This document shows, one piece after another, positions 1-36,210 of a stretch of 64,000 nucleotides of DNA (its first letter is position 1; each line of letters begins with the position of its first letter). The notes below the pieces were generated by a model that ran no database searches, had not been told where the DNA came from, and worked only from the letters and a program-made list of their open reading frames with translations. The stretch covers positions 340,171-404,170 of the forward strand of contig JAIOOW010000002.1 in NCBI GenBank assembly GCA_021414205.1, written 5' to 3'. Made by a program: the position numbers and the translations under genes. Origin of the DNA: Candidatus Anderseniibacteriota bacterium. GTDB taxonomy: Bacteria > Patescibacteriota > Andersenbacteria > UBA10190.

Positions 1-302
1 AAACAACAGCTTCACAATCCCCCAAGCAACAAGCCCATATACCAGCATTGCCAGAATTGTCGTCCATTCAAAGATGCTTCCAGCAATCTTCGTTATATGG
101 AACACGCTTAAAAACGGTGCCGTAAATACATATGTCACCCCATAAATAAAGCTGGTAAACCCTGCTCCTGGGTTTGCGCCCGTAAGCTTAAGCAAAAACC
201 TAAACATCAACAATATTTCAAGCAATCCTAAAATGTACCACACGATTTGCGTGCCTCTATAAAGAGGTTTTGTACTATTAGAAGTATATGATGAGTCCAT
301 AT
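1..302 (-). CDS. Partial (3'-truncated by window edge) small membrane protein, possibly YggT-like
   Basis: Own translation of the reverse strand from ATG at 300-302: MDSSYTSNSTKPLYRGTQIVWYILGLLEILLMFRFLLKLTGANPGAGFTSFIYGVTYVFTAPFLSVF... Two hydrophobic helices. No stop before the window start. Confidence 0.3.
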
Positions 303-371
303 GATTTGGTTGTAAAAAGCTAAATTAGCCTATCTACGTAAACCCTACTCTTGTTGCTGGCAATCTCCTAA

Positions 372-764
372 TTACTCACTTGTCTTTCCATCAAAATGCT
401 CCGTATCCAATTCAGCCTCAGCCTTAGTTGCATGAACAACGCCATCTTTATGATGAGGCGGCATATACAACGTATATAACTTCATCGACCCCTTATCAGA
501 ATTTATAATATTATGCTTTACTCCAGCAGGAACAATAATAACGCTGCCGTCTGTAAGATCGTGAGATATGTCGTTGAGCACTGCAACGCCTGAGCCTTTC
601 TCTACGCGTAAAAATTGATCTACATCATGAACCTCTTCCCCTATATCTTCTCCGGGCAATAACGACATCAATACCAGCTGGCTATTCGTATCCGTATACA
701 GCACTTTTCTAAAATTATCGTTTTCAAGCGAAACTTTCTCTATATTTGTAACATATCCGTTCAT
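372..764 (-). CDS. Cupin-domain protein
   Basis: 130 aa with conserved His/Glu beta-barrel pattern (GEEVHDVDQFLRVEKGSG...VIIVPAGVKHNIIN) typical of small cupins. Confidence 0.5.
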   Translation of the reverse strand: MNGYVTNIEKVSLENDNFRKVLYTDTNSQLVLMSLLPGEDIGEEVHDVDQFLRVEKGSGVAVLNDISHDLTDGSVIIVPAGVKHNIINSDKGSMKLYTLYMPPHHKDGVVHATKAEAELDTEHFDGKTSE

Positions 765-803
765 ATGAATACTGTACCAATAATAAAAGGTGAGCGACAG
801 TCT

Positions 804-1334
804 TTATTTTTCCTTTATCTTTGTACTAATGTAGAGATGCGTAATAAGAACTCCAACAACAATCCCTGAGACAAGAAAAGCAAGCTCGCGCCTCATGAGC
901 ACTTGGTGATCGATTCGTTCGCGTGCTTGCACTAAGAATCCCGTTTCTTGTTGCATGCCGCTAGCATCAGTAAAGTGCAGATCTATATCAAAATAATTTT
1001 CTCGAGAAAACGCATATGAAAAATCCAGCACTCCGTTTACATCCGTCGTTGCCTGGGCGCTATATATAATTGTATCTTTCGACTCATCCCCTAAAAACGT
1101 ATCCGTCACAGTAACTTCTACAGGAAGATTACTTAATGGCGCATCGGTCTTACTATTCGTAAATACAAACGGTAAATGAACTTGCTCGCCGACAAACGGG
1201 GATAATGGCGTTTGATTCAAAAATATTATCGTGTCTCCGACAACCTTTTCTACTCCACCATGGGCAAATGCGCTAATAGGTCCGGCAAAAATACCGGCGC
1301 ATACCAGAGCAATAAAAAGATTGCGCCTATTCAC
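804..1334 (-). CDS. Secreted hypothetical protein (N-terminal signal peptide)
   Basis: MNRRNLFIALVCAGIFAGPISAFA signal-like N-terminus; beta-rich body. Confidence 0.4.
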   Translation of the reverse strand: MNRRNLFIALVCAGIFAGPISAFAHGGVEKVVGDTIIFLNQTPLSPFVGEQVHLPFVFTNSKTDAPLSNLPVEVTVTDTFLGDESKDTIIYSAQATTDVNGVLDFSYAFSRENYFDIDLHFTDASGMQQETGFLVQARERIDHQVLMRRELAFLVSGIVVGVLITHLYISTKIKEK

Positions 1335-1337
1335 GAT

Positions 1338-1562
1338 TTATTTTACGAAATGGCTTATTGCAACACCGATGAAGTATGGCCATACAATAATAGCCAGCAC
1401 GCCTTTCCAAAAGGATAGGTGTAAGAAGCCGATTGTAAACAACCAGCCAATAAACCATAACCCGCCCGATGTTGCATGATGATGAGCTTTCATACTCTCG
1501 AGTGTATCCCATTTCCAAATACCTGCCAATATAATCAATAAATATTGGTATACTAGGAACAT
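1338..1562 (-). CDS. Small membrane protein
   Basis: Hydrophobic 2-TM ORF. Start moved to the internal Met (MFLVYQYLL...) to avoid a 47-nt divergent overlap with the plus-strand neighbour. Confidence 0.3.
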   Translation of the reverse strand: MFLVYQYLLIILAGIWKWDTLESMKAHHHATSGGLWFIGWLFTIGFLHLSFWKGVLAIIVWPYFIGVAISHFVK

Positions 1563-1782
1563 GCACAAACTTCCCGCAGATTTCAAACAGGCAATCGCAT
1601 CCGACAAAGCAGTTCAGGCGTTGTGGAACGACATCACTCCGCTTGCCCGCAATGAATGGATTTGCTGGGTAACCTCCGGTAAGAAAGCAGAAACGCGAGG
1701 TATTCGCATTAAAAAAGGTCTTTCAAAAATGAGGGGCGGTATGCGCCGACCCTGCTGCTGGGTCGGATGCCCGCATCGATAA
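1561..1782 (+). CDS. YdeI/OmpD-associated family protein (DUF1801-like)
   Basis: ALWNDITPLARNEWICWVTSGKKAETRGIRIKKG matches the characteristic motif of the YdeI/OmpD-associated family. Confidence 0.5.
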   Translation: MHKLPADFKQAIASDKAVQALWNDITPLARNEWICWVTSGKKAETRGIRIKKGLSKMRGGMRRPCCWVGCPHR

Positions 1783-1784
1783 TC

Positions 1785-2081
1785 TTAAAAGAGCAAAATC
1801 GTAACGAGTGCTCCAAGGAGCAGCGTAGATGCGATCACGTTTAATACCGACGATATCGTTATTGAAACCAATCCTCGATGGAGTGCGTATACAAGCCACA
1901 CGATACTATTTATCCAGATAATCACGGACGTAATCATGGAAACTCCCGCAACCTGTCCTGTTGTAATGACTTGCAGTGCCTGCGGGAACATCGAGATGCC
2001 CGATAATATCCCATTCGCAAATGCTAGTCGATCGATAAGGTGTGTATGTAACATCGGATTTCTCTTCCCCTCTTTTCTCAT
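1785..2081 (-). CDS. SemiSWEET / PQ-loop family small sugar transporter
   Basis: About 90 aa with 3 predicted TM helices and a PQ motif in TM1 (ISMFPQALQVITTG). An alternative start at Met10 (coordinate 2054) is possible. Confidence 0.45.
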   Translation of the reverse strand: MRKEGKRNPMLHTHLIDRLAFANGILSGISMFPQALQVITTGQVAGVSMITSVIIWINSIVWLVYALHRGLVSITISSVLNVIASTLLLGALVTILLF

Positions 2082-2359
2082 GCCATTATTCTATCATCAA
2101 AAAATCCCGAGTGCACTAAAATTTCCCATAACAAAATCAGATACGAATGAACGATGCTTTTCTGCCTACAACAATTTGCTATATCAATTCCACTTATACA
2201 AGTGTCATGCAAATTTGACACTATAAAACAAAAAAAGCTTGGTCAAAGAAGAAAATAATTGAATGCTTGTACATAAGGAGGTGTGCATCCTTCAAAATAA
2301 AAATTGAAATAAACGTGAATACCTCTATGCCTCTTATTTAATACATAACACATTACAAT

Positions 2360-12301: not shown

Positions 12302-12703
12302 CTACTGACTTTCCCTTACTTCGTAGCAGAGAAACTTAACTGATAAGAACTCCTCACCCGAACAGGCAGAAGAGGCAAATCGATGATGTTGGGTTGCGTT
12401 CGGAAGAACATTCTTATTTTCATCCAAAAGCCCGACGAGTTCGATGCGTATTGCACAAACAGCACATAAGGCTGCAGCCAATAGCTTAAAAATAGATCCC
12501 TCTTGAAACATTGCAGTGTCCTGATCTTCGAATATTACCAACACCTCGGCAGTAGGATGGTCATCGTTCCTGATCAAGACCCGGCTTCCTTTCGGAATAT
12601 AAATCCGATCTCCTGGCTGCAGCCTTTTGAAAAAAGCGACAACCTCCTGAAATTTTTCTTCTTCTCTCCTTAACACTTCCGCTGGACCGAACTCTTCCAT
12701 CAT
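12302..12703 (-). CDS. Hypothetical protein
   Basis: 133-aa ORF; no family recognised. Confidence 0.3.
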   Translation of the reverse strand: MMEEFGPAEVLRREEEKFQEVVAFFKRLQPGDRIYIPKGSRVLIRNDDHPTAEVLVIFEDQDTAMFQEGSIFKLLAAALCAVCAIRIELVGLLDENKNVLPNATQHHRFASSACSGEEFLSVKFLCYEVRESQ

Positions 12704-12981
12704 CTTCTCCTAAAACAAGTTGGCAAACAACAAAACAACCGCCCATGGGCGGTATTACACATGTAGGTATCTACCCCGCAAGGGGCTGGAGGTTGCACCG
12801 TGCCCATTAAGTGGGCTGGTTGCAGGAGTATTTATAGCGGGCCAGTTCCCTCATACTCTCTCTTGATACATATTCGGTTGTTATTAAGCAGAATACTCTA
12901 TCGATTGGAATGGTCAACTATGTATTGAACAACGTTTATAACCTTGGATTGGGTGAATATTGAGAAAAAACTAGAGTCTCT

Positions 12982-15592: not shown

Positions 15593-16117
15593 TCAACGGA
15601 AATAAGAACCTATGTATTTATTCCCAGTAGCTACAAGAATCCGCTCAACGATCTGTTCTAAGCTAAGGTTTTCTGCAATACTTTCTTCTTGCACAAAATT
15701 AAGAAGGTCATTTTCTTTGTACCATCTCCTCAATTCTTTCTCGCCAAATTCATCTTTATTTGGTTTATATTGATGACGACGAATCGTTTCTTCTAGCGAG
15801 ATATTGAAGTAAAAGAAATAGTTATTGTTAGGATGTTCTGCAATAATCTCTTTGAGCATTTCACCATATCGATCGCTATCAAAAATACCTTCCATGATTA
15901 CGTTATAGGAATTATCTAACAGAAAAAGCGTAGTCTTCTTTATGAGTTCAATATTGAGGCCATTGGGAATATCTTTTTCCTTCAAAACTATCCGCCTTAG
16001 ATAATCTTGTTCAACAATTGCTGTTTTTTGTTTTTGAGCATCGCGAACAGCGCGAGCCGCAGAGCTTTTTCCAGAGCCAGAAGGCCCTCTCAAGACAATG
16101 AGCTTCGTTTCTTCCAT
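15593..16117 (-). CDS. P-loop kinase (AAA_33/zeta-toxin-like fold)
   Basis: Walker A LRGPSGSGKSS immediately after the chosen start MEETKLIV. Confidence 0.5.
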   Translation of the reverse strand: MEETKLIVLRGPSGSGKSSAARAVRDAQKQKTAIVEQDYLRRIVLKEKDIPNGLNIELIKKTTLFLLDNSYNVIMEGIFDSDRYGEMLKEIIAEHPNNNYFFYFNISLEETIRRHQYKPNKDEFGEKELRRWYKENDLLNFVQEESIAENLSLEQIVERILVATGNKYIGSYFR

Positions 16118-16200
16118 ATAAATACGATAACATCCATACAAGCAAACACCAGGAACGCTAGAAACGTTTTGCTTACACCTTGCGCTTATGAATTACAAAA

Positions 16201-23487: not shown

Positions 23488-23507
23488 TATACCCCCGAGG
23501 GGGTATA
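23488..23507. promoter_or_regulatory. Candidate CsoR operator (GC-rich pseudo-palindrome)
   Basis: tatacccccgagggggtata: perfect 9-bp arms tataccccc/gggggtata around a 2-nt centre. This resembles known CsoR operators (TACCC...GGGTA) and sits immediately upstream of csoR. Confidence 0.5.
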
Positions 23508-23540: not shown

Positions 23541-24467
23541 CTATAAGTCCCTTCCAACTTCCCCATTTATATAGTCGGGAATGTCTTTATTTTTAACTGT
23601 GATCGCCCCCTTTAAGACTTCAATATTGTTCTGTAACGGCAATTCATTATGTTTATCGGCGATGGACTTAGCTTTTTTTAGAAAAGCTGTTGCTGCACGA
23701 AACCTATAAGCCGTTTTAAGATGATTGGCTAAATTATAGTAAGTGTAACCCGCGGTTACATCATTCAACTTCTCAAAAATCATGGCTGCCTTCAAAGAAG
23801 CTTTTGTAGACTCATCAAGGAGCTTTTCGAGCATTCTCCCCTTAGCGCCAGGGAAAATTAGTAAGTTCTCAAAAAATGGATATCGCATTAATCTAAAATT
23901 TGCCCATAGAGCAGTACGAAAGCCACCGACCATACACTCCATCTTATACTGCATATAACGTGAACTTTCTACACTGGCTTTTGACATAAAAACATTACCG
24001 AGAGCTTCTTGATTTCCGCTCTCTTCCGCAAACGCCAAAGCCCGTGTTAACAAATCGCTAACTTCCTTTTCGCATTTCTCAATTTCACTAGTTAAAGTAA
24101 TGTACTTTTGTTTGTCTGCCTCGGTTGAAAATTCAATCCATCCCGAAGCAAGTTTAAGATTCTTTTGGTGATACCGTAGCAAGCTAATCTTATTCATTAA
24201 CAAATCAGCCTTTCTGCTCATAAAATTCGCTTGCCAATCTTTATCACCAAATCTTTGCGAGGTCTTTATTGCCTCCTCGCTAAACAAAAGTAATTTTTTA
24301 TTATCTTCAATCGGGTCCAATACACTCAGCGCAAGACCAATGGTTTGCAATCTTAATAATTTATCCTTAACCCTGCTTTCCAAATTTAATAATTGAGCGG
24401 CAGCTTCCTTGCGTTTACCCGCTTGAAGTAACATTAAAGCTTGCTGTAAATCATCTTTTTCTGACAT
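23541..24467 (-). CDS. Hypothetical all-helical protein, overlapping partner of the DUF4238 gene
   Basis: 308 aa; overlaps the upstream DUF4238 gene by 17 nt on the same strand. No family recognised. Confidence 0.45.
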   Translation of the reverse strand: MSEKDDLQQALMLLQAGKRKEAAAQLLNLESRVKDKLLRLQTIGLALSVLDPIEDNKKLLLFSEEAIKTSQRFGDKDWQANFMSRKADLLMNKISLLRYHQKNLKLASGWIEFSTEADKQKYITLTSEIEKCEKEVSDLLTRALAFAEESGNQEALGNVFMSKASVESSRYMQYKMECMVGGFRTALWANFRLMRYPFFENLLIFPGAKGRMLEKLLDESTKASLKAAMIFEKLNDVTAGYTYYNLANHLKTAYRFRAATAFLKKAKSIADKHNELPLQNNIEVLKGAITVKNKDIPDYINGEVGRDL

Positions 24468-25386
24468 AGCGAAACTTATATCTAAATCTTAATTCATCTA
24501 TCCACGTTCTAACCCTGCGCCTCACAACCTTAAAAAGAAAGATCGGATTAAGGGGGTAACGAAAGAACCAGATCATCTTTGTTTTTTTGCTGTGCGAAAC
24601 AAAGTATCTGTAGCAATGGCCAACAATCATTCTATTGGACTCATTAACTCTTTCATTTCCTAATCCAATATACCCACGCAAATTACTCCAACTCAAGCAA
24701 AGCATAATATCTGGCGATAGCGGCAAAGTCACTTGAACACTTTTCTGCCCCAATCCTGGACCATAAAATTTCTGCCACTGTAGATCGGGATTAAAAAGAT
24801 TACAGGGGTCATCCGAAGTAATAAACTTTGCAGACCCATTAGCACAAAGAAAGGCCACACCCATCTTCATCAATAATTCCGTAATATCTGGCAAAAGCCC
24901 AAAAACATTCAGTTTATGAGCATCTTGCTTAAATCTTTTTAGTCTTACCGACTCTTTGGGTGGCAAATTATGAGCTTTTTCAATAAACTCTGCTCGTTCT
25001 ATCAGTTCACTATAAAATTGCTCTAAATTATCCTTATGTCTCAAGGTTCTTTGAAGCATCACACTAACAAAAGCACACAAAATAATATGCTCCTCCTCAT
25101 TGAGAGGTAGTCTATTTTTTATTTTCGTCCGAAATACCGCAGCATACTTTCCCTCAAGACTAGCCAACGTTTCCTCTATTACGTAGTTTTTCTGTCCGTG
25201 AACTTTAAGAGTATACAAATCGTTGCTCGCCAAAGTGTTTTTTATTTTCTCTCTTCTTTGATTTTTTCCCTTTTTACTAAATATCCAAATAGATGGTTCT
25301 TTATTAGGGGGAATCGTTGGGTCCGCAAATTCCCTTAGGTAACACTGGGGCACATAGTGTTGTTTTGTTGGTTTATTCTTTGCCAT
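24451..25386 (-). CDS. DUF4238 family protein (family includes the reported single-gene anti-phage protein Rst_DUF4238)
   Basis: N-terminal HYVPQCYLREF matches the DUF4238 hallmark (HYxPQFYLRxF); 311 aa is within the typical family length. Confidence 0.55.
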   Translation of the reverse strand: MAKNKPTKQHYVPQCYLREFADPTIPPNKEPSIWIFSKKGKNQRREKIKNTLASNDLYTLKVHGQKNYVIEETLASLEGKYAAVFRTKIKNRLPLNEEEHIILCAFVSVMLQRTLRHKDNLEQFYSELIERAEFIEKAHNLPPKESVRLKRFKQDAHKLNVFGLLPDITELLMKMGVAFLCANGSAKFITSDDPCNLFNPDLQWQKFYGPGLGQKSVQVTLPLSPDIMLCLSWSNLRGYIGLGNERVNESNRMIVGHCYRYFVSHSKKTKMIWFFRYPLNPIFLFKVVRRRVRTWIDELRFRYKFRYVRKR

Positions 25387-25427: not shown

Positions 25428-26105
25428 TTACTTCGGCATCTTCCCACCGTTCGCTAAACAAGCCTTAACGGTAGAATATGGTGTGAATTTCTTCGTTTGA
25501 TCATAGTATTTAGTACCCTTAGCGTGACACAGGTTATTGACGCTCTTTTTCACCGCGGGAGCAGAGGTTGAGATAGCTGGTGCCTTGGCTGCCTGTACTG
25601 TATTGCCGTTACAAGAGGTTGGACTCCATAACCCTCGTTTCTTTGTTTGTGCGTCTTTTTGAGCTTTCTTAAAATCAGCCTGGTACTTATACGGAATGCT
25701 GTTGTAGGTATATTCATGAGCATATCCATCTAAGATCATCAGCTTTTCAAAGCTCGTTCCGTTTTCAAGATATACATACCGTAGTAATCTTCCGTATTTG
25801 TCTCGCTCTCCAGAAACAGGGTCAGATTCAAGACGAACTTTTTTACCTGTAAGAATCGTCTTTGCTTTGTTGGATGCTTCTTTCCCAAAACATTGGACTG
25901 GTTTTCTTGGATCAACAGTTTCCGGGGTATCCATTCCCACTATGCGGATACGTTCTGTCTTAGTACCAATCTGTACGTCTATAGTGTCGCCATCAATAAC
26001 TTTGGTTACAGGATAGAGAGAAGTTGGTTTTGTAGCAGCAAAGGCAGGTTGCTGCAAAGCAACGACTAGGAGAATTGATAGAGCAATTGGTTTGAGAAAT
26101 TTCAT
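25428..26105 (-). CDS. Secreted thermonuclease (SNase-like) with C-terminal Cys-containing extension
   Basis: Signal peptide, then VIDGDTIDV...RIRIVGMDTPET...GRLLRYVY (staphylococcal nuclease homolog motifs). Confidence 0.7.
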   Translation of the reverse strand: MKFLKPIALSILLVVALQQPAFAATKPTSLYPVTKVIDGDTIDVQIGTKTERIRIVGMDTPETVDPRKPVQCFGKEASNKAKTILTGKKVRLESDPVSGERDKYGRLLRYVYLENGTSFEKLMILDGYAHEYTYNSIPYKYQADFKKAQKDAQTKKRGLWSPTSCNGNTVQAAKAPAISTSAPAVKKSVNNLCHAKGTKYYDQTKKFTPYSTVKACLANGGKMPK

Positions 26106-26114
26106 ATATCGGTA

Positions 26115-27164
26115 TTATTTTCCAACTTTCTCAAACTCCGCAGTTGATCTTTCAAGCAACTTTGCTCCCTCACTTATTAATTGTGTTGCTCGCGTAAACT
26201 TAGATACACTTCTTTCATCAAAACCTTGACGCATTAGCGGCATCGCATCGGCGTATTTCTTGAGAGCCTGGAGCCACACGCTATGAAATTGCTTGTATTG
26301 CGCTGGCACTTCCATATCTCGAGCAACTTCATAGCTCTTTTCGATTATTACACTGAGTCCAGCCACTTGAGTTATTTCAGATTGAGTCCACGTAGAAAAA
26401 TCTGGCTTACTCACAAATATTGGACCGATAGTACTAAAGGATGTTTGCAACACGCCATTTAGCTTTATTATTTGCGACTTATATTCTTGGACTGGCTTAT
26501 TTGCTTCTTCCTCGGCCTTTCGCTTTTCTTCCTCTTGAGCGTTCTGCTGAGCTATACGTGCCTGTTCCTTCTTTTCTTCCTCCGTAAAAGTACGATTGAA
26601 AGTTAGGCTTATCGTTGTATTCTTTTTTCCATTTTCTGCAAGAATGCTAATCGTGTTGCTTTCATGAGGCAGTGGTATGGATTGCTCAAAGGTACCATCA
26701 CTAGCAACCGTGACATTAGTTCCTCGCACTTTAATTGTTGCACCCTTAGGCACTACTCTACCTTTAAGTATTACATCCTTAGCTTGGAATGATTGATTAT
26801 CCGCTGGTTCTAGAATTTGAATACTTGGCGCCCGATTTGCATATGCCAACGAGCCATTGATAGCAGCAAAGACAACAATAATTCCTGCTGTAGCATACAG
26901 TTTATACTTCTTTGAAATAGTAATTCTCTTCCAGAACCAAAGCGCTGCAAGCAATAAAACAGGAATGGCAAGATACCAATAGATTAGAACAAAGATTAAG
27001 GAAACAACGCCAAGAATTAAACCAATAAGATTACGCTTTTGTTTACCAGACATCTTTTTAGGAGCGGGCTTTGCTGGAACCTGAGAAAAGTGTAAACGTG
27101 CCTCTGCGCGTATCTGCTCTTCTTCGACTATTTTCTTTCTCTCTTCTTCGGTGAGTGATGACAT
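26115..27164 (-). CDS. Membrane protein (3 TM) with extracytoplasmic beta-rich and coiled-coil domains
   Basis: TM helices at residues 45-110, then an EEEKKEQARIAQQNAQEEEKRKAEEEA coiled coil. Sits 9 nt upstream of the nuclease gene. Confidence 0.45.
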   Translation of the reverse strand: MSSLTEEERKKIVEEEQIRAEARLHFSQVPAKPAPKKMSGKQKRNLIGLILGVVSLIFVLIYWYLAIPVLLLAALWFWKRITISKKYKLYATAGIIVVFAAINGSLAYANRAPSIQILEPADNQSFQAKDVILKGRVVPKGATIKVRGTNVTVASDGTFEQSIPLPHESNTISILAENGKKNTTISLTFNRTFTEEEKKEQARIAQQNAQEEEKRKAEEEANKPVQEYKSQIIKLNGVLQTSFSTIGPIFVSKPDFSTWTQSEITQVAGLSVIIEKSYEVARDMEVPAQYKQFHSVWLQALKKYADAMPLMRQGFDERSVSKFTRATQLISEGAKLLERSTAEFEKVGK

Positions 27165-27500: not shown

Positions 27501-29813
27501 ATGCCAGGTCCAGAACATCCTATAGAACCTATTACTCTAAGCCTCGCCCGTGCAAGAGATTTGGGCATTGCTAAGAAAAAGGAAAGTTACGAACTTATAC
27601 CCGAGAAAATTGAGGAGCGGGGAAAGCAGATAAAAATAACAGCTCACATCGATGGCAGAGAGACTACTCTTACCTTTGCCAAAGACAAACTAACTGAACG
27701 GCAGTGTAGCCTCATCGCTCTTTGCTATGTTCGCATTGGACGAGGCTACGATGAGTCGGCAAATAAAAACGCTAAAGAATATCTCACCAAGGCGATTAAA
27801 GAAGAAATAGGAGCTAGACCAAAAAGAGAACCGCAGGATTGGCTCCCTTATTTCCTTATTGCTGCTTGCGACCTTGAAATTGAAGGCTTAGGGAATGTGG
27901 CAATTAAAATGTACCACTTTCTGAAACAACCCGAACAACTAAGCCACGATTTTTATGTCCATCTTTACGAAAAAGAAAGTAACCCTCTACGAAAACTCAA
28001 CGTGGCAAAAATTGCCAGTGAATACTACCCCCACAGCACCTATTTTATTGCGTTAGTTGCAGAACACTTGGCTTCCGAAGGCAAGCAAATCGAGTGCCTT
28101 CGTTACCTGATTGAGAAGAAAACCTTGATTCCTTCACAGGAATGGCAACAGGCAAATAGTCTGCGTTTTATGATATTCAATTGCTTTCTGGGACAGGGAA
28201 AGTTTGAGGAAGCAATACAAGAAGCGAGTACGCCCCTATACGGTTACAGCAATGATGAGGATTACGCTCCTATTCTCCGAGCAATTGCCCTCGGCAGACA
28301 GGGCGATTGGCAAGACGCCACTAATATTTTGGAAACAGTTGTGCATACAAGCAAGGGTTCAGGTCCCGTTATTCCCGTCGCTTTGTACTACCTACTTAAA
28401 TGCTATATCAACGCTCAAAACATCCTTGGGATAAAAGGAATAGCCGAGACACTAAGCTTGGATGAGATGGAACTAATGCCCTTTGAAGCACCCTTCTACT
28501 TTATAGATTCCCAGGAGATAATTGATACCCTTACATATGCCACTAGTAGTAAGAAGCTAGCCATTGATGAAATGACCAGAGCGAAATTAAAAGGAATACT
28601 TGCTTACAAACTCTATCGTCAACTACCTAATCCATATACCTACGACTACCCTCGCAAACTTACTTCAGTGGAGCAAAAAAGCCTGGAAAGAGCCTTGCAG
28701 CTAACAAAAGACGCATTGGAATATTTTCCTGCCAAATATTTTTTCAATGCACTTTGCTCAAACCTCTTTTGCCACAAGAGAGAATTTGACACGGGGATGC
28801 AGTATAAACTGAGGGCAATAGCGGCGACACAGGAGGATTGGGAAAAGGAGGGACTCTATATGGATGTGGGATTTGAGGATTGCAGTTCATCGTATCTTCA
28901 CACGTATGCTCACAATGTTAAGACTGCGTTTGCCATGATTGGCAGGTCCCCCAAAAACTACCTAGAAAATGGAGACTTTGAATTTGATATTAAACAGCTA
29001 TGGAAGAGAAAACTATATAGCCAAATTGCAGGGTTATACGAATATGTGAAGGAATACACTGATGAGTGGAATGAGGCAAAACAACTAGAAGAAAGCTCAA
29101 TGCTCTTTGAAATTGCCTACTCACTTAGTGAGTGCGAAGCCTTGGATGAAGCACGTGAAGTATATAGACTTTATATCAAGACCGAGGGCGAAACATCAGC
29201 AGTATTAAATAACCTGGCTATTATTTATGAGCAGACGGGGAATTTGGCAAAGGCAAAAGAAATAATTAAAAAAGCACATAAGTTGGACCCCGATGACGAT
29301 ACGGCTTCAAGGAATTATCAAAGGCTTTTCAAAACTCAGAAAAAAGTATCAAGCCGAAAAGATATTCTCGCTCCTGAAAAAACGGAGATGCCCATAGATA
29401 AAGCCGCAATTTCTCAACCGCTTGATGTGAGAATTATTTCTATGCCCATAGTCCAATTTCAGGACGCTGATAGCCCGCAAGCCAACCACCTAAAACGGTC
29501 TATCGCCTTTCGCAATAATGGAGACTTACTTCACAAAGGAGAATGGCTAGCCAGATTTACACCAGGAACCTCCGAATACTACTTTGCCCTTATACTCTGG
29601 GACCATTTCAATGAACCCGTCAGTCATGAAGATATTTTTGACTATTGCAAGAAAAAGATTCGTAAGGCGTACAGCGAAACGGCACAGTCTTTTTGTAATA
29701 AGAGAAAGAGCAATATTATCAAGGCATTACCAAAAGCAGTAGCAGGGAAAATATTGGTTAGTACAAAGACTGTCGAGGGATTAAACGCATATCAAATGGT
29801 CAGTCCCGACTAA
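27501..29813 (+). CDS. Large (770 aa) alpha-helical/TPR-like hypothetical protein
   Basis: Long ORF with repetitive helical segments; no catalytic motif recognised. Confidence 0.45.
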   Translation: MPGPEHPIEPITLSLARARDLGIAKKKESYELIPEKIEERGKQIKITAHIDGRETTLTFAKDKLTERQCSLIALCYVRIGRGYDESANKNAKEYLTKAIKEEIGARPKREPQDWLPYFLIAACDLEIEGLGNVAIKMYHFLKQPEQLSHDFYVHLYEKESNPLRKLNVAKIASEYYPHSTYFIALVAEHLASEGKQIECLRYLIEKKTLIPSQEWQQANSLRFMIFNCFLGQGKFEEAIQEASTPLYGYSNDEDYAPILRAIALGRQGDWQDATNILETVVHTSKGSGPVIPVALYYLLKCYINAQNILGIKGIAETLSLDEMELMPFEAPFYFIDSQEIIDTLTYATSSKKLAIDEMTRAKLKGILAYKLYRQLPNPYTYDYPRKLTSVEQKSLERALQLTKDALEYFPAKYFFNALCSNLFCHKREFDTGMQYKLRAIAATQEDWEKEGLYMDVGFEDCSSSYLHTYAHNVKTAFAMIGRSPKNYLENGDFEFDIKQLWKRKLYSQIAGLYEYVKEYTDEWNEAKQLEESSMLFEIAYSLSECEALDEAREVYRLYIKTEGETSAVLNNLAIIYEQTGNLAKAKEIIKKAHKLDPDDDTASRNYQRLFKTQKKVSSRKDILAPEKTEMPIDKAAISQPLDVRIISMPIVQFQDADSPQANHLKRSIAFRNNGDLLHKGEWLARFTPGTSEYYFALILWDHFNEPVSHEDIFDYCKKKIRKAYSETAQSFCNKRKSNIIKALPKAVAGKILVSTKTVEGLNAYQMVSPD

Positions 29814-32790: not shown

Positions 32791-32842
32791 GGAAAATTAG
32801 CGCAAATTAGTACATAATCCTTAATAATTTCGGCAAAATTCT

Positions 32843-33529
32843 ATGAGCAACACATCACCAAAACAAATAACGGCTAACCAACAAAACGCCCAGAAAAGTA
32901 CTGGACCAAAAACTCCTGAAGGGAAAGCTGTTTCCAAGAACAACGCCCTTAAGCACGGACTACTGACACGAGACATGGTATTACCAACAGAAGATGCGGA
33001 AGTGCTAACGGAGCTAACTACGGAGGTATGGAAGGAATTACAGCCTGTTGGTCAACTAGAGCAATTTTTAGTTGAGCGCATTGTCGCAAATATGTGGCGT
33101 ATTAAAAGGTTGCACCGTATTGAGACAGGGTTATTTACCACTGAAAGCGTGGACCAGCTTGCGGGACGTATTCGTGGTCAGGCACGAGAATTTGAACATA
33201 AAGAGTCTCTGTTTCCGAATTTGGAAATGGAGACAACAACCATTACTGACGAGAAAAAACACGCCGAGATAATCGCTAAAGCCGAAGCACTGGAAAAGAC
33301 GTGGGATTCAGACATTACCAGTATAAGTAGTGCCTTTCGGAGCGATGCCGTAGACAATGACGTACTGGCAAAAATAATCCGTTACGAAGTTTCTCTGGAG
33401 CGTAGCTTCACTAAGGCTTTACATGAACTGCAACGCTTACAAGCCAAGCGAAATGACGATACGACACCCCCTCCTGTCGCCGTTGATATTGATATTTCAG
33501 GTGATAAACCAAATGGGTTCGTTTCGTAA
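32843..33529 (+). CDS. Hypothetical protein
   Basis: 228 aa, helical; no family recognised. Confidence 0.35.
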   Translation: MSNTSPKQITANQQNAQKSTGPKTPEGKAVSKNNALKHGLLTRDMVLPTEDAEVLTELTTEVWKELQPVGQLEQFLVERIVANMWRIKRLHRIETGLFTTESVDQLAGRIRGQAREFEHKESLFPNLEMETTTITDEKKHAEIIAKAEALEKTWDSDITSISSAFRSDAVDNDVLAKIIRYEVSLERSFTKALHELQRLQAKRNDDTTPPPVAVDIDISGDKPNGFVS

Positions 33530-33670
33530 AATATATCGTAGAAAACCGATATTTTCCGATATATCAGGTATAAACGGTCAATATAGGCAAAAGAGGTCAG
33601 TTTATGAAGCATTTTCCGTGCAAATCAACGCACAATCTTTAATAATTTCGGCGGAATAATTACCAACACT

Positions 33671-34267
33671 ATGGCACGAGCAAAAGCGGAAACATCTAAC
33701 TCACTCAAAATATCTTGGCTTAAAAAACAAGGATATTTTCCAAAAGGAGAATCTTGGCGTAGCGGTAATGTTACGTGGACTCTTGGTATGAGCGAGAATA
33801 AAAGTAGCATCGGCATTGATATTACGGCGGGCATGACCGAGGAAGAAAACTATATCCGACTGCACTACACTTATACGGACTACTGGACCAAAGAGAAGTC
33901 AGATATGAACTATAAGATTCAACTGGAAACCACACCCTGTCATTTTGGTGGCGTGCGTTATTGGTTTATCTGTCCTCTATCCAAGAATGGCCAATATTGC
34001 GGACGACGAGTGGGAGTTATTTACAACATCGGCAAATGGTTTGGCTGCCGTCATTGCGGAGATATTGCCTATCAAGCCCAGTTTGAGGGTGGCAACTTCC
34101 GTATGGGTTCAGTTACCGAACCAGATGTTGAAAAAGCATTCAGTGAAGCAAAAACTCACTACTATAACGGCAAGCCGACAAGAAAATATAAACGCTACCT
34201 AAGACTACGGCAAAAGATGAATAATTCATGGATTCGAGCGGCTTCAAGGTTTGGCAATATCTTCTAA
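33671..34267 (+). CDS. Hypothetical protein with C-terminal Cys-rich zinc-ribbon-like motif
   Basis: CHFGGVRYWFICP...CGRRV...CRHCGD. Confidence 0.35.
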   Translation: MARAKAETSNSLKISWLKKQGYFPKGESWRSGNVTWTLGMSENKSSIGIDITAGMTEEENYIRLHYTYTDYWTKEKSDMNYKIQLETTPCHFGGVRYWFICPLSKNGQYCGRRVGVIYNIGKWFGCRHCGDIAYQAQFEGGNFRMGSVTEPDVEKAFSEAKTHYYNGKPTRKYKRYLRLRQKMNNSWIRAASRFGNIF

Positions 34268-34422: not shown

Positions 34423-36150
34423 ATGATTGACCCAAAAATTGTTCAAAAAAGCTATATCTGCACTTACGCTCGTAAGTCCGAAGAGGACAAGTATAAGCAG
34501 GTCCAGTCTATTCCCGACCAGCTCAAAATCAATCAACAGATTGCAGATTTTCACGAAATAAAAATTCCTGCCAAGCATGTGTACATGGAAGAAATGTCCG
34601 CGGGTGAACCTGGCAGACCAGTATTCAACCAGCTCATAGAAACAATACAAAAGAACACTCATACAATTCTCGTCTGCTGGCACTTTAATCGTCTAACACG
34701 TAACCCAATAGACGAAGGAGTACTCAAATGGTTATTACAGAAAGGCAAGCTAACCATCATTACCCCCAATCAAGTCTTTGATCAAAATACCAACGTCATT
34801 ATCACATCAGTTGAAGGAGCGCAGGGCAATCAATTTCTTATTGAATTAAGCCGCAACGTAATACGTGGCTTAAATTCTAAGCGAGCAAAAGGTGTTCCCA
34901 GTGGCGTAGCACCTGCTGGATACCGTAACGGTGGGACCGAGAAAGGCAATAAATGGTTTGAGCCAGATGATGGAGACCCGAATCGCTTTCTGCTAGTTCA
35001 AGATGCACTCAAGCTAGTCATAAACGGAATAGAACCAATGGACGCTTTCCGCAGATTAAATGACGATTGGAAATTCCTGACAATTAAAAGAAAGAGACAC
35101 GGTGGGACTCCTATCTCAAAATCTGTATGGTACGAGATGCTAAGAAACCCTATCTACTGCGGACAATTTATTGCACTTGATGAGTGGCATGAAGTTAAGG
35201 ACCCTCATTTCAAGCCAATGATTACGGAAGAAGAATATTGGGAGCTGCAATCAAAACTAGGAGTTAAGGGACGGACAAGACCAAAGCTACAAGATGAAGA
35301 GCAAGCTGCCTTTTTACAAGCTCTAACCTGTGGCGAGTGTGGCAATAAAATGAGTCGGGATCGTAAACGACAGATACGCTGTCTCTGTAAGCATAAATAC
35401 AGTGCCTTGCATCGTGATACTTGCCCCATGTGTGGTCTTCATGAATCAAAGGTCCCGTCTGATCGCAAACATACCTATGACTTCTATTTCTGTCCTACGG
35501 GCAAGAAAAAGCAGTGTTCTCAACCAACTATCCCTACAGAGGCAGTAGAAAGCCAAATTGCCACTGTCCTTGATAGCGTTAGCATCCCCCAAGAATTTAT
35601 TGACTGGGCTATGGCTTACCTGGAAACGAAAAACGATGAGGTAATTGTTAGCCGAGAGGCTAGACTGCAATCTTTGCAGAAGGCTTATAAAGAAAGTGAG
35701 GAAGAATTGAATCGCATGAACCGTTTATACATAAAGGGCGGTTTTGAGCACGAAGGTGGCGATGAGGAGTATCAAAAAATGAAACGGGAGCAACTCTCTA
35801 AAAAGAAAGCACTGCAAAAACAGTTGAGCGAATTTGATACCTCTGGTGATAATTGGAGAGAGCGAACGGAGGGAGGGTACGATTTCTGTAAAGAGGCACT
35901 GACTGAATTTACACTCGGAAGCTACCGAACCAAGCGTGGCGTCCTACTTCATATCTACCAAAAAGCCACTGTGCAGGCAGATAAGGTCCGAATAGACATA
36001 GAGCTACCATTCCAATTCATGAAAAATAAGATGCATAACCTTAAGACCAAGTTTGGACTTACCGAACCAGGCAAAATTGAAGAATTGTTGAGAGATACGG
36101 GCAAACAAGAGGATATTGATGCCGTAAAAAAGTTTTGGCTCCCCGGGTAG
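34423..36150 (+). CDS. Large serine recombinase (resolvase/invertase N-domain + recombinase domain + zinc ribbon)
   Basis: Catalytic-Ser motif YARKSEEDK, then FNRLTRN (DRLxR equivalent); CGECGNKMSR zinc ribbon; coiled-coil C-terminus. Stop codon overlaps the tRNA-Asn 3' end. Confidence 0.75.
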   Translation: MIDPKIVQKSYICTYARKSEEDKYKQVQSIPDQLKINQQIADFHEIKIPAKHVYMEEMSAGEPGRPVFNQLIETIQKNTHTILVCWHFNRLTRNPIDEGVLKWLLQKGKLTIITPNQVFDQNTNVIITSVEGAQGNQFLIELSRNVIRGLNSKRAKGVPSGVAPAGYRNGGTEKGNKWFEPDDGDPNRFLLVQDALKLVINGIEPMDAFRRLNDDWKFLTIKRKRHGGTPISKSVWYEMLRNPIYCGQFIALDEWHEVKDPHFKPMITEEEYWELQSKLGVKGRTRPKLQDEEQAAFLQALTCGECGNKMSRDRKRQIRCLCKHKYSALHRDTCPMCGLHESKVPSDRKHTYDFYFCPTGKKKQCSQPTIPTEAVESQIATVLDSVSIPQEFIDWAMAYLETKNDEVIVSREARLQSLQKAYKESEEELNRMNRLYIKGGFEHEGGDEEYQKMKREQLSKKKALQKQLSEFDTSGDNWRERTEGGYDFCKEALTEFTLGSYRTKRGVLLHIYQKATVQADKVRIDIELPFQFMKNKMHNLKTKFGLTEPGKIEELLRDTGKQEDIDAVKKFWLPG

Positions 36151-36210
36151 GATTCGAACCTACGACCATCGCCTTAACAGGGCGTTGCTCTGCCGCTGAG
36201 CTACCAGGGA
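36136..36210 (-). tRNA. tRNA-Asn (anticodon GTT), CCA encoded
   Basis: Folded by hand. Acceptor TCCCTGG/CCGGGGA (one G-U), D-arm GCTC/GAGC, anticodon loop CTGTTAA with U33 and A37, T-arm GTAGG-TTCGAAT-CCTAC, discriminator G, then CCA. Confidence 0.8.

Follow-up and report, generated by a model that had tools for sequence, protein, structure and literature searches.

The closest described relative of the genes studied here is a system made of one protein. Rst_DUF4238, a single DUF4238 protein encoded in a hotspot of P2-like prophages, confers strong resistance to phage T7, and the member from Escherichia coli is the only one that has been tested (Rousset et al. 2022; PMC9122126). A survey of 2024 still classes the DUF4238 defence gene as unclassifiable. 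The literature on DUF4238 that we consulted describes neither a partner nor a mechanism (DefenseFinder and further catalogues lay outside its scope), and a literature search for the Pfam accession PF14022 recovered only unrelated Plasmodium gene identifiers. Here we analyze a DUF4238 gene and the gene that overlaps its 3' end in 64,000 nucleotides of DNA from Candidatus Anderseniibacteriota bacterium (Patescibacteriota; GenBank assembly GCA_021414205.1, contig JAIOOW010000002.1, positions 340,171 to 404,170). This whole stretch is called the window, and positions are counted from its first letter. A first-pass annotation had read the two genes as a candidate two-gene defence module, noting that the DUF4238 family includes a stand-alone anti-phage gene, and the P2 hotspot system is indeed such a gene (PMC9122126). 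We find that the pair is a conserved two-gene unit, and that it is most likely an undescribed two-component relative of Rst_DUF4238.

The gene pair

Both open reading frames (ORFs) lie on the minus strand at exactly the positions first annotated, and reading the sequence verified the 17-nt overlap that had been reported between them. The elements of the pair are:

24451..25386, minus strand: DUF4238 gene, 311 aa, ATG start, Pfam DUF4238 match, proposed effector
23541..24467, minus strand: partner gene, 308 aa, ATG start, tetratricopeptide repeat (TPR) fold, proposed sensor or regulator
24451..24467, minus strand: overlap of the DUF4238 stop with the partner start, 17 nt, read from the sequence

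The partner ATG (24465-24467) falls within the final codons of the DUF4238 gene. The overlap, which reads ATGTCAGAAAAAGATGA on the minus strand (17 nt), encodes the C-terminus of the DUF4238 protein (...RYVRKR, followed by the stop) in one frame and the beginning of the partner (MSEKD...) in another. We regard both as real genes, because the exact sequences of both proteins were already on record and each has many full-length homologs of equal length. No ORF of 60 aa or more was found on the opposite strand between 23541 and 25386. Consensus scans for a promoter or terminator belonging to the pair itself were no richer in sites than shuffled sequence. The GC content over the pair is 0.38, against about 0.44 around it in the window.

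Conservation of the pairing

When 185,579 species-representative genomes were scanned with the partner alignment, the partner turned up at four loci, including loci in Parcubacteria and Saccharibacteria, and a DUF4238 gene lay directly upstream of it at all four. A scan of metagenomes with the alignment of the DUF4238 subfamily recovered 80 loci at 47-68% identity. When the count was limited to genome and metagenome loci with at least 900 nt of downstream sequence (65 loci), the partner was detected by tblastn in 63, and in the remaining two (L079 and L082) an overlapping downstream ORF matched the hidden Markov model (HMM) of the partner (E=8e-31 and E=6e-38, respectively). Three further long contigs had the same arrangement, so that overall 68 of 68 close DUF4238 loci were followed directly by the partner. 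The first-pass annotation had staked its proposal on a conserved downstream partner, and every close locus with enough downstream DNA carries one.

The junctions tell the same story. The two genes overlapped (by 1-26 nt) at 58 of the 68 junctions measured; an overlap of 17 nt was the commonest, with 25 related loci, and one of 8 nt was found in 15, individual lengths being approximate because start codons were picked by alignment. The proteins have also diverged together. Among 49 complete pairs, pairwise identities of the DUF4238 protein and of the partner were correlated with a Mantel r of 0.89, a value reached by none of 2000 permutations, and the partner was less conserved than DUF4238 in every comparison (mean identity 32% versus 52%). 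Pairing, overlap and co-divergence together indicate that the two genes were inherited and diverged as one unit. Chance adjacency of the two genes is excluded.

More remote DUF4238 genes, at 22-30% identity, were found in the P2-like Escherichia phage pro483, in 35 plasmids of cultivated bacteria and archaea, and in 14 IMG/VR contigs. None of the 18 such loci that were inspected (phage pro483, three plasmids and the 14 IMG/VR contigs) had the partner, and in phage pro483 the DUF4238 gene stands alone between a replication gene and a portal gene. A tblastn search of 72,556 plasmids gave no match to the partner. By these sequence distributions, the partner appears to mark a sub-clade of DUF4238, and the named carriers of the cassette are mostly Patescibacteria.

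One locus departs from the simple layout. In L055, a partner-like ORF (52-765, plus strand) that is cut by the contig start and matches the HMM at E=1.4e-38 is followed by a 112-aa ORF (797-1135, plus strand) and then by a DUF4238 gene (1148-2101, plus strand), an arrangement that may represent two tandem cassettes.

The DUF4238 protein

Membership of the 311-aa protein in DUF4238 had first been claimed from a hallmark motif, HYVPQCYLREF, and the profile search strongly upholds it. The protein scored 131.7 bits against PF14022 (cut-off 27; E=4.5e-38), and the match spans residues 8-267 and profile positions 1-280 of 281, nearly the whole model. The PADLOC model DUF4238-Pers also matched (E=1.7e-14, 52 bits), with a best stretch limited to residues 165-266 and profile positions 187-290 of 309. 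Three segments of the protein deserve attention:

25327..25359, minus strand: HYVPQCYLREF motif, residues 10-20, N-terminal, read from the sequence
24805..24819, minus strand: TSDDP motif, residues 190-194, the most strongly conserved motif of the DUF4238 core, from alignments with the codons checked
24454..24570, minus strand: C-terminal extension, residues 273-311, basic and with a hydrophobic helix, outside the Pfam domain

Residues H10, Q14, Y16 and L17 of the first motif are invariant even when compared with the 25%-identical protein of phage pro483, and T190, S191, D192 and P194 of the second are invariant both in the DUF4238 alignment (A2) and in the alignment with that phage homolog. 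The C-terminal extension, in which a helix is predicted at residues 281-304, is kept throughout the partner-associated subfamily (W273, Y277, P278, F283 and K286 in a 35-sequence alignment). The alignment also shows that the stand-alone DUF4238 protein of phage pro483 lacks this extension. Searches for structural or sequence relatives of established chemistry gave none for DUF4238.

The partner protein

The partner had been described in the first-pass annotation as an all-helical protein of no recognizable family. We made AlphaFold2 models of both proteins as monomers, and that of the partner is indeed all-helical. The second part of the description holds for sequence, since the 308-aa protein has no match in Pfam (E<=0.1), PADLOC, NCBIfam or PHROGs, but not for structure, where the fold is readily recognized: the model is a right-handed superhelix of helix-turn-helix repeats, the TPR fold. 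TPR-like helices begin right at the N-terminus, and some homologs have weak precomputed matches to TPR_10 (PF13374). PADLOC v2 holds no model for the partner, and no HTH, RHH or AbrB match was found in it. Searched exhaustively with a profile, 1.84 billion representative proteins yielded a family of only 235 clusters, most of them about 300-320 aa in length. Three features characterize the protein:

24111..24140, minus strand: WIEFSTEADK loop, partner residues 110-119, between two long helices, from the partner alignment (A1) and the model
23835..23930, minus strand: insertion of ~30 residues (about 180-211) in the DUF4238-paired form, from an hhalign comparison of A1 with the alignment of a fused family (A4)
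23559..23585, minus strand: DIPDYxNGE tail, partner residues 295-303, C-terminal, from A1

The loop, which is non-helical in the model and which we used as a search pattern for the partner family, has invariant W110, F113, E116 and K119 in the partner alignment. Partner residues from about 182 to 211 remained unaligned with the fused family; within this insertion W188 and E200 are nearly invariant, and the model places there three short helices of lower pLDDT. In the tail region N293, P297 and Y299 are nearly invariant, and the pattern IPDYxxGE is also kept in the distant branch of fused proteins.

Fused relatives of the partner

This distant branch consists of single genes that encode proteins of 380-470 aa with extra N-terminal domains. 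It is homologous to the whole of the partner: hhalign, at a probability of 99.9% (E=3.7e-31), set residues 6-311 of the partner against residues 197-471 of the fused proteins. The branch keeps the IPDYxxGE tail and is without the insertion at 182-211. One member (P0283) has an N-terminal HNH nuclease domain (PF01844, E=2.9e-7), and two more show a comparable CCxC...HH pattern that Pfam does not match. Most members instead carry an N-terminal domain of ~150 aa with invariant D-G-N-D-G and W-T-F motifs, and some carry a transmembrane helix. Two identities were considered for the ~150-aa domain. We do not call it a nuclease, since it had only a non-significant match to Mrr_cat (E=0.087) and nothing meaningful in a profile search of the PDB, which leaves P0283 as the only supported nuclease fusion; that it is a hidden DUF4238 domain was rejected at an hhalign probability of 0.6% (A2 against A4). 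A word-index search gave 182 matches to fused proteins of ~460 aa that combine the TPR module with the ~150-aa domain or with HNH. Their named sources include Gammaproteobacteria, Burkholderiales, Thermodesulfobacteriota, Scalindua, Actinobacteria and a metagenome-assembled genome of Pacearchaeota.

Three loci of fused genes were inspected:

L086, 5001-6389: fused partner-like TPR gene
L088, 5001-6362: fused partner-like TPR gene
L089, 5001-6194: fused partner-like TPR gene

No DUF4238 neighbour was present at these loci, and two of the three lie next to restriction or integrase genes. The first is found beside a type I HsdR, a YgjP-like protein, a DUF6946 protein and an unannotated 295-aa gene, and the second beside a tyrosine integrase. 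That 295-aa gene, which lies upstream of the L086 fusion, was ruled out as a DUF4238 gene; an RNNLSH motif in its protein looks HEPN-like by eye.

Flanking genes at related loci

We compiled a census of 150 non-redundant proteins encoded within two genes of the cassette. The commonest families were as follows, the counts being descriptive:

N6_N4 DNA methylase: 7 flanking proteins
LexA-type (Peptidase_S24 plus LexA_DNA_bind): 7 flanking proteins
Serine recombinase (Resolvase): 5 flanking proteins
D12 DNA methylase: 4 flanking proteins
HEPN_AbiU2: 3 flanking proteins
N6_Mtase: 2 flanking proteins
Type I specificity subunit: 2 flanking proteins
MvaI/BcnI endonuclease: 2 flanking proteins
Mu transposase C-terminal domain: 2 flanking proteins
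rve integrase core: 2 flanking proteins
IS21 (IstB): 1 flanking protein
Mutator transposase: 1 flanking protein

Seven of the methylase matches belong to LexA-methylase fusions. These are single ORFs that join a complete LexA (DNA-binding domain and S24 peptidase) to an N6_N4 DNA methyltransferase, and they occur in one sub-clade, in divergent orientation to the DUF4238 pair:

L044, 84-1505, minus strand: LexA-methylase fusion
L053, 3003-4880, minus strand: LexA-methylase fusion
L076, 3069-4937, minus strand: LexA-methylase fusion
L050, L067, L071 and L073: LexA-methylase fusions

Other neighbours are found at closer quarters. AbiU2 sits 4 nt upstream of the DUF4238 gene in L002 and L004, an hsdM-hsdS pair (type I) lies directly upstream of the cassette in L091, and at several loci a large serine recombinase lies directly downstream of it. 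In L090 the genes downstream of the pair are of the housekeeping kind (mraZ/rsmH and PBP), and L092, a non-CPR locus, has neighbours of diderm type. No synteny of flanking genes was common across the 84 related loci, and all-against-all clustering of flanking proteins revealed no family that would constitute a third conserved gene in most loci. The largest cluster had 10 members, made up of methylases and LexA-methylase fusions, and came from one sub-clade, mostly in divergent orientation. The GC content of the related loci ranges from 0.27 to 0.58.

Proposed function and its alternatives

We consider it reasonably probable, from genomic context and the domain swapping within the partner family, that DUF4238 is the effector and the TPR protein the sensor or regulator of a mobile conflict or defence module, and the cassette appears to move between genomes as an operon-like unit. 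The fused branch is central to this proposal. One repeat module that is joined to varied effector-type domains, in cis or in trans, suggests a sensor with exchangeable effectors, which would put DUF4238 in the effector position.

The mechanism that we envisage runs as follows. DUF4238 would be the effector, probably an enzyme. The conserved overlap suggests that ribosomes ending the DUF4238 gene re-initiate at the overlapping ATG, so that both proteins would be made together. The TPR protein might then bind DUF4238 at the C-terminal helix, with the ~30-residue insertion of the TPR protein as a possible point of contact; we propose these two elements because both are seen only in the paired forms examined, and our confidence in this mode of docking is low. 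The TPR protein would keep DUF4238 inactive until a protein or peptide derived from a phage or other invader fills the groove of its superhelix, and the freed effector would then end the infection, perhaps with the loss of the cell.

Several points weigh against this proposal. To call DUF4238 an effector is to assign a role only, because no relative of known chemistry was found, and the transfer of function from Rst_DUF4238 is weak, because the match to the PADLOC model is partial and identity to the phage homolog is 24-25%. Neither the partner nor the cassette was found in IMG/VR viral contigs. The flank counts are descriptive and give no measure of enrichment over random genes, and the seven methylase matches that are LexA-methylase fusions may be unrelated to defence. 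Finally, the third of the inspected fused genes (L089) lies among housekeeping genes.

Two other explanations have to be weighed. The cassette could be a toxin-antitoxin-like addiction module, in which DUF4238 is the toxin and the TPR protein its antidote, and which stabilizes the mobile element that carries it rather than sensing phage. Tight coupling, overlapping genes, co-diverging proteins and a two-gene unit that moves as one would all agree with such a module, as would the serine recombinases, transposases and plasmid-like genes near the cassette. We nevertheless think it unlikely. The supposed antidote, at 308 aa, matches the toxin in size and lacks a DNA-binding domain, and the toxin is encoded first and the partner second, whereas the antitoxin of a type II toxin-antitoxin system is small and labile, usually has a DNA-binding domain and is usually encoded first. 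The HNH-TPR and other fusions are single polypeptides, which fit a sensor or regulatory domain better than a labile antitoxin, and the 72,556 plasmids searched yielded no copy of the partner. The boundary between toxin-antitoxin and abortive-infection systems is blurred, and this explanation overlaps with the defence module that we favour.

The second explanation gives the pair an ordinary cellular role in small-genome bacteria of the candidate phyla radiation (CPR) and in other bacteria. DUF4238 would then be an enzyme of metabolism or nucleic-acid processing, served by the TPR protein as chaperone or adaptor, and the accessory location of the pair would be incidental. It draws on a DUF4238 family without known chemistry, on the fact that TPR proteins are often chaperones or assembly factors, on some housekeeping neighbours such as mraZ/rsmH and PBP in L090, and on named sources that are mostly Patescibacteria. 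The genomic record makes it improbable as well. Flanking genes lack synteny over the 84 loci, whose GC content spans 0.27-0.58, and the distribution is very patchy, with the partner at 4 loci in the 185,579 species-representative genomes. The recurrent neighbours are methylases, restriction enzymes, AbiU2, recombinases and transposases, the nearest characterized member of DUF4238 is an anti-phage gene, and the partner evolves much faster than DUF4238.

The TPR partner would provide points that can be tested, namely an interface at which the two proteins probably bind, a groove that probably receives the trigger, and a natural division between sensing and effector action. We tentatively advance a wider idea, to which we give somewhat less than even chances: the partner may found an undescribed family of immune-sensor TPR modules, marked by the WIEFSTE-type loop and the IPDYxxGE tail, which control exchangeable effectors, with DUF4238 in trans and HNH or other N-terminal domains in cis. 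The cassette would then be the first regulated two-component form of a mechanistically opaque defence family. The immune repertoire of Patescibacteria is reportedly sparse, and the cassette would also be among the few defence systems carried mostly by these bacteria (CPR), going by named sources. The fusion of the TPR module elsewhere to at least one recognizable nuclease domain points to a small modular family absent from current defence model sets, the partner having no PADLOC match. Should the pair serve a purpose other than defence, it would still be a tightly co-evolving enzyme-adaptor pair.

Genes and elements around the pair in the window

The first-pass annotation placed the pair in an accessory block between a copper module and a mobile element, and the gene content of the window agrees: a CsoR-type repressor and a copper P-type ATPase lie on one side, and a Toprim primase-like gene and a large serine recombinase/integrase on the other. 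The copper module, downstream of the pair, is made up of the CsoR-type repressor, a CopA-type ATPase, a DsbD/HMA protein, a cupredoxin and one more P-type ATPase. The opposite flank carries genes for a 770-aa TPR protein and the Toprim primase-like protein, two genes without family match and the gene of the large serine integrase. The housekeeping genes pgm, rpoD and dnaG lie beyond a tRNA-Asn. The elements that matter most here are:

34423-36150, plus strand: large serine recombinase/integrase, phrog_95, E=3.4e-49
36136-36210, minus strand: tRNA-Asn(GTT)
25428-26105, minus strand: SNase/thermonuclease homolog, PADLOC candidate model C3a212 (SNc+LTD), E=5e-44
26115-27164, minus strand: membrane protein gene, upstream of the SNase gene

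The final 15 nt of the integrase gene overlap the tRNA-Asn, which suggests an element integrated at the tRNA, and the pair lies about 10 kb from the integrase. A search of the window from 9 to 37 kb for an att-like direct repeat of the tRNA-Asn end was negative.

It is very improbable that the SNase and the membrane protein act with the pair as a larger four-gene unit: all four genes are on the same strand with gaps of 9 nt and 41 nt, the 41-nt gap has no clear promoter, and the SNase matches the PADLOC candidate C3a212 (E=5e-44), but SNase falls outside the 25 most frequent flank families of the 84 related loci, upstream genes vary by locus, and the N-terminus of the SNase, which is signal-peptide-like by eye, suggests an extracellular nuclease. 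The C-terminal tail of the SNase contains Cys.

Other elements of the window were noted in passing. A LOOT RNA (Rfam RF03000; 27225-27343, minus strand; 75.7 bits, with a gathering score of 46.4; E=1.9e-12) sits just upstream of the run of membrane protein, SNase, DUF4238 and partner genes on the same strand, and is followed by a terminator-like hairpin (27230-27212). Transcribed divergently from this run is the gene of the 770-aa TPR protein (27501-29813, plus strand), in which residues 546-600 are clearly a TPR region and the remainder matches no family. Next to the pair on its other side, a perfect 20-nt palindrome, TATACCCCCTCGGGGGTATA (23488-23507), falls within the 5' end of the CsoR-type repressor ORF when that ORF is taken from its first ATG (23518). 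We take this palindrome to resemble a CsoR-type operator; if it is one, the repressor gene probably starts at an ATG further downstream, and the copper operon would have a control region of its own directly behind the partner stop codon.

The accessory block also holds, to the left of the copper genes, a P-loop kinase-like protein of 182 aa (15593-16141, minus strand), which has weak sub-threshold matches to Zeta_toxin and AAA_33 and a match to a PHROG polynucleotide kinase. A SAM riboswitch (RF00162, 51.8 bits; 12764-12872, minus strand) lies upstream of a 133-aa ORF (12302-12703) with only a weak cupin match (E=2.9e-4, under the Pfam cut-off). Between the primase-like gene and the integrase, a 38-nt direct repeat (32802-32839 and 33620-33657, plus strand; copies 79% identical) stands just upstream of each of two ORFs without family match (32843-33529 and 33671-34267), and it may be a duplicated promoter or operator.

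Comparison with known systems

The fold of the partner invites comparison with TPR scaffolds and receptors, which include LGN/Pins, APPBP2 and the Rap/NprR/PlcR-type receptors of the RRNPP family (among them Rap of phage phi105). Sequence identity to the partner is 9-14%. Unlike these proteins, the partner has its own conserved WIEFSTE loop and IPDYxxGE tail, and no TPR Pfam match; with the RRNPP receptors it has only the TPR fold in common. Neither an N-terminal HTH or phosphatase domain nor an adjacent pro-peptide gene was apparent at the partner by eye, though no search was aimed at either, and the next gene downstream is that of the CsoR-type repressor with its own operator-like palindrome. 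The single-gene TPR fusions are closer relatives. They carry an effector-like domain in cis, lack the insertion at 182-211 and have no DUF4238 neighbour, whereas the partner represents the trans form.

The Avs/AVAST STAND NTPases are defence architectures with TPR sensors and exchangeable effectors. What the pair would share with them is the proposed logic of a repeat-domain sensor that controls a toxic effector. It differs in the small size of its proteins and in having sensor and effector on separate polypeptides, and neither the DUF4238 protein nor the partner matched a P-loop NTPase (NACHT/NB-ARC, STAND) in Pfam or PADLOC.

Rst_DUF4238 remains the nearest comparison. The window protein belongs to the same Pfam family, PF14022, and both are found in accessory, mobile DNA. 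Residues H10, Q14, Y16, L17, D56, E71, E78, R113, T114, T190-D192, P194, N199, K215 and N251 are invariant between the window protein and the DUF4238 protein of the P2-like phage pro483. The differences are several. The window protein is 24-25% identical to the phage homolog and matches the PADLOC system model in part. Rst_DUF4238 is a single gene, whereas the window DUF4238 has an obligate downstream TPR partner and an extension of 39 residues (273-311) that the phage homolog lacks. Rst_DUF4238 resides in a P2/P4 prophage or satellite hotspot, whereas the window pair lies on a chromosome segment ~10 kb from a serine integrase at tRNA-Asn. The hosts of the former are enterobacterial prophages, and the cassette occurs in uncultivated bacteria, mostly Patescibacteria. 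The first-pass annotation had anticipated that a conserved DUF4238-partner pair would be a new two-component variant, and this assessment is consistent with a known system of one protein (PMC9122126), a pro483 homolog that stands alone, and a pair kept at 68 of 68 loci. Since the window pair shares neither the stand-alone architecture nor the P2/P4 location, and matches the system HMM only in part, we place it beside Rst_DUF4238 as a two-component variant rather than within it as a member.

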